From Octopus vulgaris (taxonomy: Eukaryota), in contig OX597819.1 of NCBI GenBank assembly GCA_951406725.2, forward strand, positions 60,326,001 through 60,390,000: a stretch of DNA of 64,000 nt, read 5' to 3'. Position numbers and translations under genes: made by a program. The notes below the pieces were generated by a model, which had not been told where the DNA came from, made no database searches, and saw nothing but the letters and a program-made list of their open reading frames with translations. Of the stretch, positions 9,340 through 58,571 are shown one piece after another. Position 1 is the stretch's first letter, and every line of letters starts with the position of its first letter.

Positions 9340-10590
9340 CATCATCATCATCGTTTAGTGTCTGCTTTCCATGCTAGCATGGGTTGGATGGTTCAACTGG
9401 GGTCTGGGAAGCCAGAAGGCTGCACCAGGCCCAGTCTGATCTGGCAATGTTTCCACGGCTGGATGCCCTTCCTAACGCCAACCACTCCGTGAGTGTAGTG
9501 GGTGCTTTTTACATGCCACCGGCACAGGTGCCAGATGAGGCTGGCAAACGGCCATGATCGGATGGTGCTTTTTACATGCCACCGGCACGGGGGCCAGGCG
9601 AGGCAGGCAACGGCCACAAATGGATGGTGCTTTTTACGTGCCACCAGCACGAGGCCAGTCGGGGCGGCACTGGCAAGGGCCACATTCGGATGGTTCTCTT
9701 ACGTGCCACCAGCACTGGTATCACAGCTGCAATTTCCATTGATGTTGATCGATTTCAATTCTCACTTGCCTCAACAGGTCTTCACAAGTAGGGTTTTGTG
9801 TCCCCAGAAGGAAAGGTATGCATAAGTGGACTGGCACATCCCGGGTTATGGTCTCACTTGTCCTGCCGGTACTTCTCATGCACAGCACACTTCCAAAGGT
9901 CTCGGTCTCTAGTCATTTCCTCAGTGAGACCTAAAGTTCGAAGGTCGTGCTTCACCGCCTCGTCCCAGGTTTTCCTGGGTCTGCCTCTTCCACAGACTCC
10001 TTCAACCGCTAGGGTATGGCACTTTTTCACACAACTATCTTCATCCATTCTTGCCACATGACCATACCAGTGCAAACATCTCTCTTGCACACCACAACTG
10101 ATGCTTCTTAGGTCCAGCTTTTCTCTCAAGGTACTTACACTCTGTCAAGTATGAACACTGACATTACACATCCATCGGAGCATACTGGCTTCATTTCTTG
10201 CGAGCTTACGCATATGCTCAGCAGTCACGGCCCATGTTTCACTGCCATGTAGCATGGCTGTTCGTACACACGCATCATACAGTCTGCCTTTTACTCTGAG
10301 CGAGAGGCCTTTTGTCACCAGCAGAGGTAAGAGCTCTCTGAACTTTGCCCAAGCTATTCTTACTCTAGCAGTTACACTTTCAGCACACCCGCCCCCGCTA
10401 CTGACTTGGTCATCTAGGTAACGGAAGCTATCAACTATTTCTAGTTTTTCTCCCTGGAAAGTGACAGAAGTTGGTCTCAGAGCATTTTCAGTGTTTATTG
10501 CTCCTGAGCATCTGCCACATACAAAAACTATCTTCCTAGTTAGCCTTCCTTTGACATTGCTGCACCTCTTATGTGTCCATAGCTTACATG
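9340..10590 (-). mobile_element. 5'-truncated RTE-clade LINE (RT C-terminal half, 3' UTR, (GAT)n tail)
   Basis: Translation CKLWTHKRCS...CGRC...LEIVDSFRYL...RVRIAWAKFRELLPLL...LYDACVRTAMLHGSETW...WYGHVARM...GRGRPRKTW, with one in-frame stop. Confidence 0.92.
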
Positions 10591-17471: not shown

Positions 17472-17748
17472 GACAAATGTTAGTGACTCTCAAAGAAAAA
17501 GGGTGATAATTTCAAGCATAAGGATAAATGTAACAGAAAATTGAATTTCTTTATTTAGTGGAATAAAATCTTATCTTTGTTAACAAGCAAAGCAACAAAT
17601 ATATTTCATGCGGCAGATGTTAGCGACTCTCTAAGAAAAAGGGAGATAATTTCAAGCATAAGAATAAATGTAACAGAAAATTGAATTTTCATACTTAATG
17701 CAATAAAATCTGATCTTTGTTAACAGTTAAAGCAACAAATATATTTCA
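17472..17748. repeat. Two-copy tandem duplication, 140-bp period
   Basis: The unit CA(A/G)ATGTTAG(T/C)GACTCTC...GCAACAAATATATTTCA occurs twice with scattered substitutions. Confidence 0.9.
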
Positions 17749-37587: not shown

Positions 37588-38038
37588 TGTTTGTTCCTTC
37601 TCAAGCCATGCCTGGCTCATAGGGCCAGTTTCCCGGTTTCCTTGGCGTATGGGTTCCGCACCTGGACGGGATGCCGGTCCGTCGCAGGTGAGAGAAAGTT
37701 GTGGCGAAAGAGTCAGCAGAAGTTCGCCATTACCTTCTGCCGGAGCCGCGTGGAGCTTAGGTGTTTCGCTCATAAACATACACATCACCCGGTCTGAGAT
37801 TCGAACCCACGATCCCTCGACCGTATGGGTTCCGCACCTGGACGGGATGCCGGTCCGTCGCAGGTGAGAGAAAGTTGTGGCGAAAGAGTCAGCAGAAGTT
37901 CGCCATTACCTTCTGCCGGAGCCGCGTGGAGCTTAGGTGTTTCGCTCATAAACATACACATCACCCGGTCTGAGATTCGAACCCACGATCCCTCGACCGC
38001 GAGTCGGCTGCACTAACCACTAGGCCATGTGCCTCCAC
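37588..38038 (-). mobile_element. tRNA-derived SINE family D with internal 176-bp tandem duplication
   Basis: Minus strand has A box TGGCCTAGTGG and B box GGTTCGAATC. Units are 37646-37821 and 37822-37997. Related copy at 62969-63280. Confidence 0.88.
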
Positions 38039-51057: not shown

Positions 51058-51480
51058 ATGCATCAAAAGTGAAAGTTAGGATGCTTTCGGCTTTATTGCC
51101 AAATACTGAGTGGCAACTATAGATATCAGCTGGTTGCGGGTCACGTGATCACGGCAGACAAGCTTGGGCAATTAAGAGAAGCTGAAATCTCGAAGAGAGA
51201 GGATATACGGAGGCAAAGAAGAAGCGAGAGAGAGCAGAGAAGAAGCAAGAGCAACTTCTGATGGAACCGAACACAATGCACCAAAAGTGAAAGTTAGGAT
51301 GCTTTCGGCTCTATTGCCAAATACTGAGTGACAACTATCAGCTGCTTGCGGGTCACGTGATCACAGCAGACAGCTTGGGCAATTAACTGAAGCTGAAATC
51401 TCGAAGAGACGGATATACAGAAGGAAAGAGGAAGAGAGAGCAGAGGAGCAGAAAGAGCAACTTAGATGGGAACCGAACAA
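51058..51480 (+). promoter_or_regulatory. Tandemly duplicated (218-bp period) promoter-proximal unit, each copy with a GGTCACGTGATC E-box
   Basis: Units start at 51058 and 51276. CACGTG at 51142-51147 and 51354-51359, directly upstream of a strong splice donor. Confidence 0.65.
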
Positions 51481-51598
51481 ACCGCATTTCAGGTCTAATT
51501 GCTGCTTTGCTAAATGCCAAAAAAAGACACGGATATTGTGCGGTCGCCGTTGTCACCGTTAAACATGCGACATTATTTACCAACGAGAAGTGCCCTCG
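51480..51598 (+). other. Probable 5' exon of the CBM21 gene (start uncertain); intron 51599-52625
   Basis: CG|GTAAGT donor at 51599. Long T-rich tract with TTTAG acceptor ending at 52625, 26 nt before the ATG. Confidence 0.55.
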
Positions 51599-52011
51599 GT
51601 AAGTAACTGAATTTTGACAGTGCATTCAGTTCCAGTTAGTAATCGAATCTTGCAGTAGATTTTTTTGTTGTTGTTTTTTTCCTATGCGTGCTCTCTCTCT
51701 TTCTCTCTCTCTCTTCGGGTAGATATATGGCATTTAAAATTTTTTTTATTTTAATGAGTTTTTGGTCAGTGTCTGAAAGACGAAGGGTTAAAATGGTGCA
51801 GTGAGTGTATAATGGATTGTGCCGCTACAAGTGAATCTAGAACTCATCTCACGTAAAAAAATAAAAACCGACTCTATACCCATATCTCTTTTAATGTCGC
51901 CCCACAGTAATAACGTTGCTTGTTTATATTACTGCATGTATGATTGCATGTATGATTTATTAATTATAATCTCATCACGGTCATTGATAGAAGAATGCTA
52001 GAGAGTGTGTG

Positions 52012-52048
<37 letters not shown>

Positions 52049-52651
52049 GACTGGGTATATTAGTAGGTAAAGCTATACGGGTACTCAAGAGGAATGTGTT
52101 AAGGAATCTACTAATTATGATAATAAAAACATTGCTTTACATAATACTAACAGGTAAAAAAAAATTGACAGTGACGGAATGTAAAATTAAAACTAAAACG
52201 ATATAATTAGAGAGAGAAAAAATACGCTTTTATGTACGTAAATTGTGGATCGAACAATTTCCGTTTCACATTTTTTATCGATTACTTTTCCGTTTTCAAG
52301 GTAGTAATTTCATTGATAAAATTACATTATCGTTATTTCTTATTGGATATGATGTTTCCCCCTCTTCATCATTATAATATTCATCAAAATTTTAATTTTA
52401 ATTTTGTGGGAAGGATGATTGTGTCTACTGGTGCCGTTCAACAGGTCTATTATAAACACATGTCTGCGCTAGCGATGCTGTGTTAGTGTTGTAGAGAAAA
52501 ACATCAGTGACCTTGACGTTGCTTCCTGGCAGTGTAGTTTACCTCAAGGACGTTTATTTTCGGCATTGCCGAACGTGGTTTTTGTTTGTCGCAAAATTTT
52601 TATTGTGTTTGTTTTATTTTTTTAGATTCTTCTGTGTAATAATAAAGAAGA

Positions 52652-55600
52652 ATGGGGAATTATTTCTCTCGTATGGGATGTTGTCATGCTGATGACGATG
52701 AACACGGTGACTTTTCAAAACCCGCGGCGAAGCCCCTGGAGGAGAAGACACCGATCGCTGCTTCGTTAAAACCTCACGATCTCCATATTATTGAAAGACA
52801 GCCTGAATCGAGTAATGAAGAAAAGACGCACAGTTTTGAGAAAATTAACGTGCTCCTTGCTTCGCCGACAAAAATTTGTGCACATTCTAATAAAAACTCC
52901 AATGCAAATCCACTAATTCATCCGGTCTACACGAAACCTCCAACTGCTATTGCAGGATATAGCGAGGATCCTATGATAAAAGAGCTCAAAGAACGATTTA
53001 AAAACAGATCTCTTTCCAAGTCTATTGAGGATGGCAGCCCTGATATCAATGACCGTCAACCAATCCTTTCGAAAAAGTGTGGTGGAACACCATTGAAAGC
53101 TTATGTATCTTATACAACTGAACAAGGACAATTAGACCAACCAGATTTCATTAGAGAAAAGACACCAAATGATGAATTTTGTACCCGTTTTGCCAGAGAG
53201 GAGACCCCTCCTTTTATCGAAGTAAGGTTGTCACCTGTTATTGAACTTACTCCCACAGTTGCTAAAATAATAGAAACGAAGCCTGAAGTCTCACAAAACT
53301 GTGTCTGTTTAGAACAGCCCAAACGTCTCAACACTGCCAATGTTGATCCACCAGAGAAGATTCATGAATCAGTCCTTGTTGACATTGCAAATGGAAGTGT
53401 ACTGGATAGTCTCCGAAATCAATCTTTCACTTTTAAAGAAGATGAAACCAATGATAAACCCAAGGTATTAGATTATATTAACGAGGGTTTTAAACATAGC
53501 TCTGGCTCACTGCATAAAGAAGAGATGACAATTATTAAAAGAGATTCAAATGGAGGTTATAAGGTTTTCAAGGAATGCATTGTTTCTACTTTGGTACACA
53601 ACAATGAAGCATTTACAGACAGTTCTCAGTCCCTGACAGATAAATGGGATATGACTCCAGGTTATGATGATTATCCATATCACAAATCAGCTAATAATAG
53701 AGGCGAACCAAAATTCCAAATCAGCACAGACAGTTCTTATACAGCATTAGATGAAGACAAAATGGTCCAAGTGCGTGTTGTGGACAATCCACTTTCAGAG
53801 GAATCTTATGATCTTTGTTCTTTTGATGGCTATCATAATGTCCCAGAAAAACAACAATTACTTCCTCAAGACTCACGTACTTACCTTTGGGAAGATGACG
53901 ATGAACATGATGCTGATGATGAAGAAACATTCCTTGAGTCTACACCACCTATACAAAGTAAAAGAAATTGCCAGCTATCTACTGATTCAGAAACTGTGTG
54001 TTCTACAGACCTTTTCCTTCCTGATTCTGACAGTTCCCATGATTCCCTGACACCAGAGAATAAATTGATGGAATTTTCTTCTCCAACAAATATATCAGAT
54101 TTTGCAGATAAGACTGTGTCAAGCTGCATTGACAATGCTCAAAAATGTATTTCTCAAAATGAAACAACCCAAGAAAGTTTCAGAGAATATCCACTGAAAT
54201 CCTTTGGAAAATATATTCTTGATAAAAAAGTGTCATTTGAAGATGAACTAGCAAATAATAATGCTTCCACTAATTTTGACACCACATCTGATTCAGTTGA
54301 CCTGCCCCCAGAAGAAGAACAGATCCAGAGAGAGACATCATTTGAAAATGATGCCCCATCTTTTTCACCCAGTGAATGCTCTTCTTCTACATTTCCATAT
54401 GATAATGATGGAGATGTAGAAAAAACACAGGATGACAGAAAAGATAGTCAAAATGGGAACCATTTAAACAGAGCTACACCAGATAATAACGATCAACGAG
54501 AAAATGAAAACGATAACGAATTTCCGTCCCCTCCTGAGGAATTTCTTGAATTTCGAGAACTTCTTGAAAAAGAAGGATTCAGCAAGGAAGAGTTTATGAG
54601 TGTCAGTGAAACAGGAGGTGAATTATTGGATCTGAATGAAGAAAATATTTATTTCCAGAGAGATGGTTCTCATTCTTTAGATATTAGTGAAGACACTAAT
54701 TTGCTTGCAAATCTGAATGAGTCACATTTCCTGGAAGAAGCAATATCTCATTCATCTGGTTACGATGATCGTTCCGTAGAGAATGAGCGAATTTCCCTCC
54801 TAGACAACAATGAACAACTTCTTGCATCTTATGACAGTGATTCCTTCCAGCATGGAGGACATGTTTCATATGATAATGATTTATTAGATCAATCAATTAC
54901 AAGTGATTATTATTCATCTGGTGATAGAGATCAACATTTTTCTGAATTTTCTCAGTTCTCTTTGAAAGGCAATGAAAAAAGATTTGCAGTTTTAGAAGGA
55001 TCCAGTGGTCACAGTAGCCAAGACGAAGTAACAGATGCTGATGTTAAAACTGGCACAACACATCCATCGTTTAAAAAGAAACCTCAAATACCACACTCAG
55101 CTCCAATGATTAACAGGAGTGGATCCTTTGAATTTGAAGACATTGCTAAAGATTTATCGACATTTAAAAGAGATATTTCCCTCAATAGTGATACTGATGC
55201 CTCATGTTCATCACCTGTATCAGACGTAAGAGTTGATTTGTTGAGTAAAGTCAGGCACCCTTCATCTCAGAAACAAAATAATTCAAATAATGAAAACAAA
55301 ACTGAAAGCAAATTACCTCGAATGATGTCACACGAACTTGAATGTTTCAGCTTAAGTGATCCCGAAGAGAAAAAAGTGATACTTGAACCTGATTTTGGTT
55401 ATCCTATTGCCAAAACTGATGCATTACAAAGGCAAGAATCAGAGTCAGAGAAAGGACCAACGAAAGCAAAGTCTGACAATGAATTACCAAGTGATGAAAC
55501 CACAGACAATATCAAACATGAATTCACTGAAGAAAATATTCTAGATTCATCAACGGATTCTACCAGTGACCCTTCATGTATACAGCTTCAAGACCCAACA

Positions 55601-56980
55601 ACTGAAACCACACTGTCAGAAAATAAAGACAAAGAGGCTGAAGACAGTGGTTGTTCAATAGATAAAAGTTCCAAAATTAAAGAGGTTTTAGAAACAAAAG
55701 AAATTCTTGCTAAATCTTTGAAAGAAAATGAAAATCAAATTGAAACTGATGACAGTGAACTTTTGCCATCACCAAAGCTTAGACGTCAGTCAACATTGAA
55801 AACTAGTGAGATGTTTTCAATGGCTTTAATGGAGGAATTACAGGAAGAACTCAGCTCAGATGCTCAATCAGATCGATCCAAATGTTCCATCAGTTCAGAT
55901 ATTCCAAAGATTGTAATGACATCACCAAATGGATCCACAACATCATCATCATCACCTAGAAGTTCTCAGATAGATTTGTCCAGTTCAAATGATAAAGAGG
56001 CGCCGGCAACTCAACAAATCTTTTCTCTACGCTTCCGTCAACCAGCTGCTGACTATGTCACATTTCGTAACAGACTTGAAACGACATATGTTTCACTTGA
56101 AAATGTTCTCCTTCGAAATAACATAATTCTTGGAACTGTGAAAATAAAACCAATGGGTAATAAGAAATCTGTTTTTCTCCGTTGCTCATTTAATCTTTGG
56201 GAGACATCCGTAGATATTCCTGCCACACATACCCCTAGCAGCTTCCCGAATCAATATGAAACTTTTAGCTTTGCCTTAACCATGCCAGTGTCCTTCGAAG
56301 AAATCATGCATGTTGTTTTTGCAGTTTGCTACAAAAGTGATGATCAGACTTATTGGGACAATAACGACAATAAGAACTATGAAATAGTATCAACCCATAC
56401 TATTCAGCAAGAAATGCTTTCCAAATTCCGTTCAAGTGAAACTGAAGCTGTGTTACCAAAATGCTACCCAAGTGTGTTGAAGAAAGGTGTGACATCTTTC
56501 TCAAGTAATTCCTCTTGGGATGTGGCTTCATCTATAAAAGAAACCAAACATATTAGAAAATCAGCTATTTGCTTGAATGTTTCTAAACCTGCTGCTGATT
56601 ATGTCACTTTTAAAAGCCGCCTTGAGAGAGACTTTGTAGCTTTAGAACACGTTTTTAATAAGGACTTCATGTTAACTGGTAGCATCAAAGTTAAAAATTT
56701 AAATGTAAAGAAAACCGTATTTATACGATGCAGTTTTGATGGATGGAAGACTTGCATAGATGTACCTGCTAGCTTGTCTAATACAGAATACACATATCCA
56801 TATGAAACGTACACCTTTGAAATGAATGTACCAACAGTTTTTAATACTAAAATGCAGTTTGCGGTTTGTTATCAAGCTGGTGATAATGTCTTTTGGGACA
56901 ATAACGGTGATAAAAACTATCAAATTTGTTTTTTCGATATGTATGCTAAAATGCAAGTTGACCCCTGGAAAGGACAGTAG
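52652..56980 (+). CDS. PPP1R3-like glycogen-targeting protein with two tandem CBM21 domains (1442 aa)
   Basis: Uninterrupted 4.3-kb ORF. Two repeats (aa ~1124-1245 and ~1306-1425) carry CBM21 hallmarks (PAADY..F..RL....V.LE, G.(V/I)K(I/V)K...KK.VF.RCSF..W, FAVCY.....(Y/F)WDNN..KNY). RVxF-type KKVSF at aa 525-529. Confidence 0.93.
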   Translation: MGNYFSRMGCCHADDDEHGDFSKPAAKPLEEKTPIAASLKPHDLHIIERQPESSNEEKTHSFEKINVLLASPTKICAHSNKNSNANPLIHPVYTKPPTAIAGYSEDPMIKELKERFKNRSLSKSIEDGSPDINDRQPILSKKCGGTPLKAYVSYTTEQGQLDQPDFIREKTPNDEFCTRFAREETPPFIEVRLSPVIELTPTVAKIIETKPEVSQNCVCLEQPKRLNTANVDPPEKIHESVLVDIANGSVLDSLRNQSFTFKEDETNDKPKVLDYINEGFKHSSGSLHKEEMTIIKRDSNGGYKVFKECIVSTLVHNNEAFTDSSQSLTDKWDMTPGYDDYPYHKSANNRGEPKFQISTDSSYTALDEDKMVQVRVVDNPLSEESYDLCSFDGYHNVPEKQQLLPQDSRTYLWEDDDEHDADDEETFLESTPPIQSKRNCQLSTDSETVCSTDLFLPDSDSSHDSLTPENKLMEFSSPTNISDFADKTVSSCIDNAQKCISQNETTQESFREYPLKSFGKYILDKKVSFEDELANNNASTNFDTTSDSVDLPPEEEQIQRETSFENDAPSFSPSECSSSTFPYDNDGDVEKTQDDRKDSQNGNHLNRATPDNNDQRENENDNEFPSPPEEFLEFRELLEKEGFSKEEFMSVSETGGELLDLNEENIYFQRDGSHSLDISEDTNLLANLNESHFLEEAISHSSGYDDRSVENERISLLDNNEQLLASYDSDSFQHGGHVSYDNDLLDQSITSDYYSSGDRDQHFSEFSQFSLKGNEKRFAVLEGSSGHSSQDEVTDADVKTGTTHPSFKKKPQIPHSAPMINRSGSFEFEDIAKDLSTFKRDISLNSDTDASCSSPVSDVRVDLLSKVRHPSSQKQNNSNNENKTESKLPRMMSHELECFSLSDPEEKKVILEPDFGYPIAKTDALQRQESESEKGPTKAKSDNELPSDETTDNIKHEFTEENILDSSTDSTSDPSCIQLQDPTTETTLSENKDKEAEDSGCSIDKSSKIKEVLETKEILAKSLKENENQIETDDSELLPSPKLRRQSTLKTSEMFSMALMEELQEELSSDAQSDRSKCSISSDIPKIVMTSPNGSTTSSSSPRSSQIDLSSSNDKEAPATQQIFSLRFRQPAADYVTFRNRLETTYVSLENVLLRNNIILGTVKIKPMGNKKSVFLRCSFNLWETSVDIPATHTPSSFPNQYETFSFALTMPVSFEEIMHVVFAVCYKSDDQTYWDNNDNKNYEIVSTHTIQQEMLSKFRSSETEAVLPKCYPSVLKKGVTSFSSNSSWDVASSIKETKHIRKSAICLNVSKPAADYVTFKSRLERDFVALEHVFNKDFMLTGSIKVKNLNVKKTVFIRCSFDGWKTCIDVPASLSNTEYTYPYETYTFEMNVPTVFNTKMQFAVCYQAGDNVFWDNNGDKNYQICFFDMYAKMQVDPWKGQ

Positions 56981-58571
56981 GTTGTTAATTTATTTTGTTT
57001 AGAATCACATTCTTAATTTATCTTGGTTATAGGGGCCCAATACATTAAACATGAAAGGAAAAAAAAAAGACATTTTCTTTCAAAACTAGAAGAAAACAAA
57101 ACCATAACAAAAACTATATATATTGCTTGCTTTTTTTTTTTTAAATAATTAAGATTATGTTTATTATTAAAAGTTTATTTTTTGCAAACTATCTGTGATT
57201 ATGTAACTTATGTAAACCTAGTATTTTAGCACCAAGCAGACATTTAAAGCAGCTTCACCATTGTTACCGAAATAATATTTCTCCCATCCCACCACAAATT
57301 CCTTTACATATTTATTTTTCACATTTTGAATATTTATTTCTTTTTGTGCTGTTTCAATCCCTGTTGTTTTACTTGATTCAACTCTCTGCAAAACATAAAT
57401 GTTTTATAACATTGAGCTGCAACAACAGTAAGAGACATGATCTGTGCAACTTACAGATTCAATCAATCAAGTTTTATTCATAGCTACCTCTAAAGTCTAC
57501 ATTTAATCTTTCATTTAATTTTCAATTATTATATACCTTGGATTACTGCATATCTTAGAATAACGCCGATTGTTCTTTTATTAAAATACTATTTCAATGA
57601 AATGTGCAAAATGGATAAGAAAAAAGAAAAAAAAAACAAAACAAGTAAATTAAGTTATCTTTGAAATTGCTTAAACCAGAATGCTATTTTGTGATCTAAA
57701 TTTCAAACAGAAGTCTTGTTTCTTCTTTTAATAAAAACCAGTTTTTAGCATATCGCTAAATGAAAATCAAAACAAAGAAAATTTGCTAAACTTGTTAAAT
57801 GGTAAAAATGAAATAATGACATCTAGTATGGTAAACCCCTTTCCAGAAATATTTGGTTCCTGGATTAAAATAATTAAAATAACTAATTGTTTTACAATTA
57901 AAAGATTGCTGGATTTATACAGCATTTATACAGAAATATTAATAATGTCTCACAAAAGTGAATAAGCAATCACTCTTGATTAATGCTAATTAATTACTCT
58001 ATAACAAACCCAAACAGTGAAAAATGAATCCATAATAATAATAATAATTATAAAAACATGGAATTTTTCTGGACAAATAACTTCTGCAGAGAAAAAGCTC
58101 TCACTATTTATACACACACACACACGTATGTATGTATAAATTCTATATACCAGAGTATGTTCAAATAATTCACATATTTCATCAGTAAGAATGCCTTCTT
58201 TGAAATATTTTTGCGATTCTTTTAGGGGAACAAACAAGAAATGATAGACGAACATAAAATCAAATCCCGTTCAACTGAATAACTGATGTAAATAATCAGC
58301 AAATAAAATGTAGCCATTCTGGAGTAAAATATAATTTCTGTCATGAAGGGAAAAAGGTGAAAAATTCTCTTTAGAAGCTGCTCCTGTCAGAGAAACAAAA
58401 ATTTCAAACCAAGAGTAGCAACTCCTGCCAATAATAATTTAAATGGTGAGTTTAAATCGAGTGAAGGATAAAAACTTCGATGGAAGTTAAGGTAAACAGC
58501 ACAAAATGTTATTTAAATTATGTGTGATTATGTGTATATACATATATGCATTACATATATGTGTGTGTATG

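Follow-up and report, generated by a model that had tools for sequence, protein, structure and literature searches.

We analyzed a window of 64,000 nucleotides (nt) of the Octopus vulgaris genome (GenBank assembly GCA_951406725.2, contig OX597819.1, positions 60,326,001 to 60,390,000); all coordinates below refer to this window. Its only open reading frame (ORF) longer than 200 amino acids (aa) lies at 52652-56980 on the plus strand, is intact, and encodes a giant protein derived from the PPP1R3 subunits of protein phosphatase 1 (PP1). The protein ends with two CBM21 domains, both of which have kept one of the two sugar sites known in the family (site I) and lost the aromatic clamp of the other (site II). 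The features of the locus are as follows:

51166-51598, plus strand: first exon, non-coding, with a demonstrated 3' end and an only estimated 5' start
51599-52625, plus strand: intron of 1027 nt, GT-AG with a polypyrimidine tract (donor GT at 51599, acceptor AG at 52624-52625)
52652-56980, plus strand: single coding exon for the 1442-aa PPP1R3-derived protein
52652-52684, plus strand: N-terminal MG...MGCC, with predicted N-myristoylation (Gly2, or Gly9 from the second Met) and Cys10/Cys11 palmitoylation
52685-56014, plus strand: low-complexity, acidic, Ser-rich spacer with conserved islands, likely disordered
54224-54238, plus strand: KKVSF (aa 525-529), candidate PP1-docking RVxF motif with a PKA-type serine, without the AD..G..L extension
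54884-54937, plus strand: conserved island (aa 745-762) with the phospho-FFAT-like core DYYSSGD
55115-55159, plus strand: conserved island (aa 822-836) with the Atg8-interacting-motif-like core FEDI
55778-55816, plus strand: invariant LRRQSTLKTSEMF, which we take to be a PKA-type site
56015-56395, plus strand: CBM21 repeat 1 (aa 1122-1248), by Pfam, profile, alignment and model
56396-56560, plus strand: linker of 55 aa between the repeats, of low model confidence and 55% invariant
56561-56935, plus strand: CBM21 repeat 2 (aa 1304-1428), by Pfam, profile, alignment and model
56981-58500, plus strand: probable 3' untranslated region, extending at least to 58500, where the examined stretch ends

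The 1442-aa ORF belongs to a real, spliced and transcribed gene. We aligned four sequencing runs to positions 52060-58500, among them contigs X1 and X2, which are at least 99% identical to the window and whose RNA status is a guess, and X22, raw RNA-seq of a related organism, mostly 95-99% identical. None of the listed runs containing the locus is recorded as RNA, and the evidence of expression is this four-run alignment. Three runs mark the splice junction: X1 and X2 start at 52625, four raw X22 reads break there, and the unaligned ends of all three carry the sequence that ends at 51597/51598 and is followed by GT in the window. The large run X17, probably DNA, is continuous through the intron. 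The 5' start of the first exon was placed from 432 extra letters of X1, assuming no more introns. Inspection of the sequence reveals that stops interrupt the frame between acceptor and ATG, so the first exon adds no coding sequence, and X1 and X2 span the ORF without an internal joint, in agreement with a preliminary description of the locus, made from the sequence alone, that had placed all 1442 aa in one coding exon. Downstream, X22 RNA reads occupy 30 of 30 bins and are deepest at 58080-58500, in a library that does not resolve strands. The single raw RNA run is shallow, with 155 reads out of 12.9 million records, and this might speak for an artefact, be it a misassembly or a decaying duplicate. 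This explanation is largely refuted and we consider it extremely improbable: the ORF is intact, splicing is seen in three runs, the same architecture recurs in seven records from at least three genera, and the repeats are 77-79% invariant among orthologues. At position 53526, the window has T where all four aligned runs have A, which gives Met293 in the window and Lys in O. sinensis and the other orthologues; the T may represent a rare allele or an error in the assembly.

The presumed promoter and first exon are overlaid by a tandem duplication of about 215 bp (51058-51280 and 51276-51486, 76-95% identical in blocks). Each copy contains GGGTCACGTGATCAC, which holds the window's only two plus-strand TCACGTGA sites, presumably E-boxes of a type recognized by TFEB/MITF or USF. 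Across the splice junction, in frame with the main ORF, runs an upstream ORF of 15 or 32 codons (51514/51565-52639 when spliced). It terminates 12 nt short of the main ATG, where three TAA codons follow each other, at the foremost of these; four further short upstream ORFs lie farther 5'. To judge from the sequence, these upstream ORFs may exert translational control.

Both repeats are true CBM21 domains. When each repeat is scanned alone, Pfam CBM_21 scores 83.4 bits on repeat 1 and 86.8 bits on repeat 2 over profile columns 2-112/113, against a cut-off of 28.9 bits, and a profile built from 142 non-cephalopod domains places them at aa 1122-1248 (145 bits) and aa 1304-1428 (128 bits), in line with the coordinates of the preliminary description. 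Besides CBM_21, the domain matches in the protein comprise only an overlapping CBM53, and no CBM20. The two repeats are 43% identical to each other. AlphaFold2, run on a 37-row alignment, models them as two beta-sandwiches, with a predicted local distance difference test (pLDDT) by block of 72-95 in repeat 1 and 62-85 in repeat 2, falling below 50 in the linker (model residues 140-186); the predicted template-modelling (TM) score of the two-repeat model is 0.48 and the relative orientation of the repeats is undefined. The top Foldseek matches are the CBM21 domains of PTG, GL and GM (TM score to target 0.91, root-mean-square deviation 1.3-1.5; aligned repeat not specified). Domain scan, profile and structure prediction thus all recover the two full repeats of the preliminary description, and its IKPM, VKNL and both WDNN..KNY motifs are located as it had described.

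The two sites have been mapped in PTG, where site II consists of N177, F180, E181, K182, Y203 and D214, and site I of R187, W193, Y196, C235, W246, N248 and N253 (PMC9582199). Site II is the cyclodextrin-binding site of GM and PTG (PMC6235537, PMC9582199), with F180 of PTG buried in the sugar ring (PMC9582199). We transferred these positions by alignment and counted them in 12 cephalopod domains and in 161 single-domain relatives, after excluding 5 of 166 as partial or split. The site II positions of repeat 1 are P1167, N1170, K1171, K1172, H1193 and E1203 (P/S, N/G, K, K/R, H and E across cephalopods), and those of repeat 2 are N1349, V1352, K1353, K1354, L1375 and E1385 (N/H, V/G, K/E, K, L and E/K). 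Matches to site II therefore number 0-1 out of six in repeat 1 and 2-3 in repeat 2, as compared with 5-6 in 147 of the 161 relatives. Both clamp aromatics (F180 and Y203 of PTG) are absent from both repeats, a condition shared by only 5 of the 161 relatives, and neither repeat matches the site II motif VxNxxFEKxV with Y203 and D214. Site I, in contrast, is intact in repeat 1 (R1177, W1183, W1235, N1237, N1242) and in repeat 2 (R1359, W1365, W1415, N1417, N1422), and all five of these residues (R, W, W, N, N), with the WDNNxGxNY motif, are present in all 12 cephalopod domains. Among five aligned orthologues, the invariant positions are 10 of 10 in site I, 5 of 12 in site II and 182 of 230 in the rest of the domains (P-value = 0.007 for site II versus the rest, Fisher test, with orthologues that are not independent). 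This pattern indicates that site II is relaxed in both repeats and site I under selection, within domains that are strongly constrained as a whole.

Five short single-CBM21 proteins (P0099, P0118, P0122, P0128 and P0153) also have no site II aromatics, together with an RVxF-type motif and site I. Two of them, P0118 and P0153, cluster together in the tree, apart from the cephalopod repeats. These sequences suggest that site II was lost independently in other animals.

The preliminary description had noted VKNL in repeat 2, against IKPM in repeat 1, and had proposed bivalent glycogen or enzyme binding, possibly with specialized repeats. With the two site II aromatics absent from both repeats, VKNL is no sign of an intact glycogen site, and bivalent glycogen binding by one intact and one specialized repeat is not supported. 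A tether in which repeat 2 binds glycogen conventionally and repeat 1 is a specialized enzyme binder could still draw on N1349 and K1354, the site II residues that repeat 2 retains, and on the Y203R mutant of PTG, in which one clamp residue is dispensed with and maltoheptaose binding is nearly unaffected (10.1101/2021.11.12.468446). However, repeat 2 is without the Asp as well as both aromatics, including the counterpart of F180. One orthologue has His in place of N1349, and another has Lys in place of the acid. We consider a conventional tether of this kind unlikely.

The published roles of site I conflict with each other. In GM, site I is reported to recruit glycogen synthase, and the N228A mutation in this site abolishes the boost to synthase dephosphorylation (PMC6235537). 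A similar role emerges in R6, where the WDNND motif binds synthase and phosphorylase (PMC4482762). In PTG, site I has been described as a sugar site, since W246R strongly reduces maltoheptaose binding, and PTG contacts synthase via the glucan of glycogenin (10.1101/2021.11.12.468446). A third account treats site I of PTG as possibly ancillary or a crystal contact (PMC9582199). By analogy, a pair of domains with only site I would still engage the glycogen-synthase particle under two of these three readings.

In the searches that we made, the tandem architecture is restricted to coleoid cephalopods, as the lineage-specific architecture of the preliminary description had anticipated. Public databases contain an identical protein, which clusters at 90% with XP_029637411.1 of O. 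sinensis and XP_014778619.1 of O. bimaculoides. The corresponding loci, LOC115212818 and LOC106875140, are annotated only as 'uncharacterized' or 'CBM21 domain-containing'. A word-index search of long proteins returned 7 matches among 1279 candidates, namely the Octopus cluster, Argonauta (P0005), P0006 (near cuttlefish), Acanthosepion (Sepia) pharaonis (P0007) and three single-domain proteins. Two full CBM21 domains occur in all seven cephalopod records and in none of 151 other proteins scanned; in a rescan of all 158 proteins, four non-cephalopod cases proved to be one domain split by an insertion. An exhaustive search of 1.84 billion representatives gave 2109 matches, and among the best 150 of these only two span both repeats, both of them cephalopod (697 and 573 bits, the next match having 123 bits); tandem forms that have diverged strongly may fall outside the best 150, clusters at 50% conceal members, and Nautilus lay outside the search. 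No tandem CBM21 was found in the best 80 of at least 392 metagenome loci, many of them on short contigs. A literature search (CBM21 tandem, PPP1R3, cephalopod, LOC106875140), with supplements and subscription journals outside its scope, returned no description of the protein, and of the 25 papers listed, out of 38 that matched on tandem CBM21, none deals with such a pair in animals by title or abstract start. Outside animals, a fungal glucoamylase has two CBM21 domains. PPP1R is not mentioned in the accessible part of the flying-squid genome paper (PMC10225486). On the points on which the preliminary description could have failed we thus found two CBM21 domains, tandem orthologues that in these searches were neither widespread nor described, and a transcribed ORF.

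Argonauta also has an ordinary 304-aa PPP1R3B-like protein (P0017) with the canonical cassette and an intact site II. Since this normal subunit has been kept, the giant protein is an extra paralogue in Argonauta. In our tree the sequences of each repeat cluster with full support, on a long stem (1.35 and 1.31 changes per site) and with a short crown. These branch lengths are consistent with remodelling before the split between octopods and decapodiforms, which occurred roughly 270 million years ago.

Two hypotheses on the origin of the repeats, internal duplication and descent from the cephalopod short paralogue, were considered and not established. FastTree groups the two repeats (0.88), as does a quick LG+G4 tree whose support labels were possibly shifted by re-rooting. 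A mixture-model tree of 36 chosen domains does not resolve the two, and none of 1000 bootstrap trees joins them. The approximately unbiased test does not reject joining them (P-value = 0.545), the constrained tree being 1.5 log units better. The repeats share 4-5 rare states with each other and up to 8-10 with some single domains, and in sequence identity the nearest single domains include P0159 (49%), which is sister to the Argonauta subunit, and P0017 (45%). A separate group of proteins of 621-872 aa with a single CBM21 is formed by P0008-P0010, P0105, P0117 and P0150. Its members are typified by a long N-terminal extension, a canonical RVxF cassette and insertions within CBM21.

Long stems followed by slow change would also fit a remodelling that ended in a new constraint. 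The CBM21 pair may have left glycogen metabolism and become protein-binding modules for a cephalopod-specific partner, in a membrane signalling scaffold with or without PP1. The loss of site II from both repeats, the many conserved islands of the spacer and the peak of invariance at aa 1301-1350, where repeat 2 carries V, K and H in place of the near-universal F, Q and N, would all agree with such repurposing, and the last of these hints at a new partner. Yet in each of the 12 domains studied the full surface of site I is invariant, its non-core Arg and Asn included, and the site II loop has 3 of 12 positions invariant in cephalopods, being variable rather than fixed for a new ligand. On balance we regard repurposing as rather improbable, though as the strongest of the alternatives.

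Upstream of the repeats, the preliminary description had reported about 1100 acidic and Ser-rich residues acting as a long flexible spacer. The composition agrees, with 13-24% D+E and 14-29% S+T in blocks over aa 1-1120. Flexibility is compatible with the data: no Pfam family matches aa 1-1119, and AlphaFold2 finds no fold for aa 1-420 (pLDDT 31, which on a shallow 6-row alignment is weak evidence of disorder). Invariance is 46% over aa 1-400 and 25% over aa 401-1030, with 14 conserved islands in the spacer. One well-conserved stretch (53492-53788, aa 281-379) contains a weakly predicted beta-hairpin at aa 287-313 (pLDDT below 50), and according to the model it may fold upon binding a partner. 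We looked for a separate gene from which the N-terminal region could derive and found no match among 1708 candidates of 30-792 aa, nor did aa 230-400 yield a usable Atlas match.

The membrane anchor of the preliminary description stands only as a motif prediction. The myristoylation pattern fits both possible starts, Met1 and Met8, next to the Cys pair; MGCC is invariant in 5 of 5 aligned orthologues and the first MG is found in 4 of 5, so that a conserved acylation-type motif is predicted. Hydropathy detected no transmembrane helix (the best 19-aa value, 1.45, lies within repeat 1), and a C-terminal helix of the R3F/GM type is absent.

As previously described, KKVSF (with V527 and F529) is the only match to the RVxF pattern in the protein. 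It is kept as KKVSF or KMVSF in 5 of 5 aligned orthologues, the loose pattern being common by chance, and 8 of the 11 residues at aa 520-530 are invariant, compared with 21% over aa 480-620. The motif is followed by ED or EE, in place of the AD seen in 107 canonical relatives. A profile of 47 full-length canonical invertebrate-type subunits did not find the RVxF-AD..G..L cassette before either repeat, and its sole other match in the protein (P0001) was KKVSF itself, at 3 bits. Remnants of canonical N-terminal, linker and tail motifs that had been suspected by eye (around aa 68-72, 1084-1093 and 1273-1289) received no support from the same profile. The decapodiform-type orthologues have a second RVxF motif, KRVSF, about 35 aa further on (aa 633-637 in P0006 and aa 642-646 in P0007), whose octopod counterpart is RETSF or REMPF (54329-54343 in the window, aa 560-564). 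The two RVxF motifs resemble a short internal repeat.

Other islands of the spacer provide leads only, the PKA-type site among them. The phospho-FFAT likeness of DYYSSGD follows from PMC7705450 and from the full FFAT consensus, and FEDI fits the Atg8 pattern [Y/F]xx[L/V/I] (PMC12913940), cores of this type being frequent by chance. Combined with the lipid anchor and the C-terminal carbohydrate modules, these motifs may point to a glycogen receptor or membrane-contact tether that resembles STBD1 by convergence and would bring glycogen to autophagosomes or to contacts with the endoplasmic reticulum. Vertebrate STBD1 has the same order of parts, with an N-terminal anchor, a linker with Atg8-interacting motifs and a C-terminal carbohydrate-binding module (PMC12913940, PMC5358331), molluscan STBD1 is without membrane anchor (PMC12913940), and FEDI, YT(A/T)L and DYYSSGD are conserved in an otherwise variable spacer. 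The likeness ends with this order, since STBD1 combines a single CBM20 with a hydrophobic segment at the N-terminus, whereas the giant protein has two CBM21 domains, no hydrophobic segment and a candidate RVxF-type motif. Moreover, all these motifs are short and of a kind that chance often produces, molluscs already own STBD1 (PMC12913940, where the accessible text does not mention cephalopods), and glycogen binding itself is doubtful, which leaves an STBD1-like function improbable.

Among known systems, the closest are the PPP1R3B/C-type subunits, such as GL, PTG, oyster CgPPP1R3B and Argonauta GAB1604902.1, which share the CBM21 subtype (E = 2e-28 to 2EEF and 3e-24 to PTG), the fold, the intact site I with WDNN..NY and, as a candidate in the giant protein, an upstream RVxF-type motif. 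They have one CBM21 in about 300 aa, as opposed to two in the 1423-1594 aa of the cephalopod proteins, which differ from them also in the lost site II clamp, in having no RVxF-AD..G..L cassette beside the domain, in the acylation-type N-terminus and in the terminal PY(W/Y) of the family, which is not recognizable. The giant protein is a PPP1R3 homologue by descent; we did not file it as a canonical PPP1R3 because it has neither the adjacent PP1 cassette nor site II nor a single CBM21.

Long PPP1R3 proteins are known as well. GM has a C-terminal sarcoplasmic-reticulum helix. It measures 1122 aa (PPP1R3A; PMC9582199), and PPP1R3F (R3F) is another membrane-anchored member of the family (PMC13759716). 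In R3F and GM the RVxF motif and the one CBM21 are N-terminal and the transmembrane anchor is C-terminal; the giant protein is their mirror image, with a predicted lipid anchor first and the tandem CBM21 last. By this analogy it probably works like membrane-anchored R3F. The preliminary description had missed this known precedent, the loss of site II in both repeats and the status of extra paralogue.

Altogether, the giant protein is likely a membrane scaffold for glycogen-bound enzymes rather than an ordinary glycogen binder. We propose that this scaffold is lipid-anchored and uses both its site I surfaces to keep particles that carry glycogen synthase close to PP1, which would be docked through the remote RVxF motif. 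We infer every binding step of this mechanism and would give it an even chance of being right. N-terminal acylation would place the protein at a membrane. PP1 would bind KKVSF and be released on phosphorylation of its serine, a residue whose phosphorylation in the RVxF motif releases PP1 from GM and GL (PMC9582199). Site I would bind glycogenin-primed glucan, glycogen synthase or both, two weak sites providing an avidity that replaces the lost clamp, and the flexible arm of about 600 aa would let PP1 reach the enzymes on the captured particle. Glycogen synthesis would thereby gain a local pool at the membrane that is switched by kinases and complements the soluble short subunit. The short subunit of the oyster binds PP1, synthase, phosphorylase and glycogen (PMC6396720), and therefore the pathway exists in molluscs. 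The conservation of MG/CC and KKVSF amid poorly conserved surroundings would favour this mechanism, and R3F (PMC13759716) and N-myristoylated mouse Stbd1, a glycogen binder (PMC5358331), may serve as precedents.

Several observations weigh against the proposed scaffold. In GM, cyclodextrins are bound at site II only (PMC6235537), and PTG shows 1:1 binding with site II called primary (PMC9582199); if this preference is valid for glycogen, neither repeat binds sugar well. The W246R mutant of PTG is about 10 degrees less stable (10.1101/2021.11.12.468446), so the Trp of site I is also structural and may owe part of its invariance to folding. Conservation is highest at aa 1301-1350 (92% invariant), a block beyond both known sugar sites. 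As for PP1 docking, KKVSF precedes repeat 1 by about 600 aa, as the preliminary description had it, while the distance is 50 aa in median (range 39-118) in 126 relatives, none of which has a comparable gap. The loose RVxF pattern arises in 52% of spacer shuffles, the strict form, picked post hoc, in 0.3%, and KKVSF is without the AD..G..L/phi-phi extension that adds contacts to PP1.

Elsewhere in the window, tandem repeats at 37646-37999 (period 176, two identical copies), 17477-17748 (period 140) and 9501-9669 (period 63) sit in repeat-rich sequence without long ORFs.

A more speculative extension of the scaffold, which we think has a small chance of being correct, is a lipid-anchored organelle tether in which the site-I-only CBM21 pair would read synthase-loaded particles and the arm would offer docking motifs for phospho-switched PP1, VAP and Atg8. 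If true, glycogen granules would be placed at membrane contact sites and switched between synthesis and autophagic disposal, in a convergent fusion of R3F and STBD1 roles in coleoids.

The giant protein is a variant of known parts and implies no new chemistry. It nevertheless provides two natural, strongly conserved CBM21 domains in which site II has been remodelled and site I left intact, which makes the question of what site I does testable without destabilizing mutants. As a membrane-anchored PPP1R3 of mirror-image design, it would be convergent with vertebrate R3F and would represent a coleoid novelty in energy handling.

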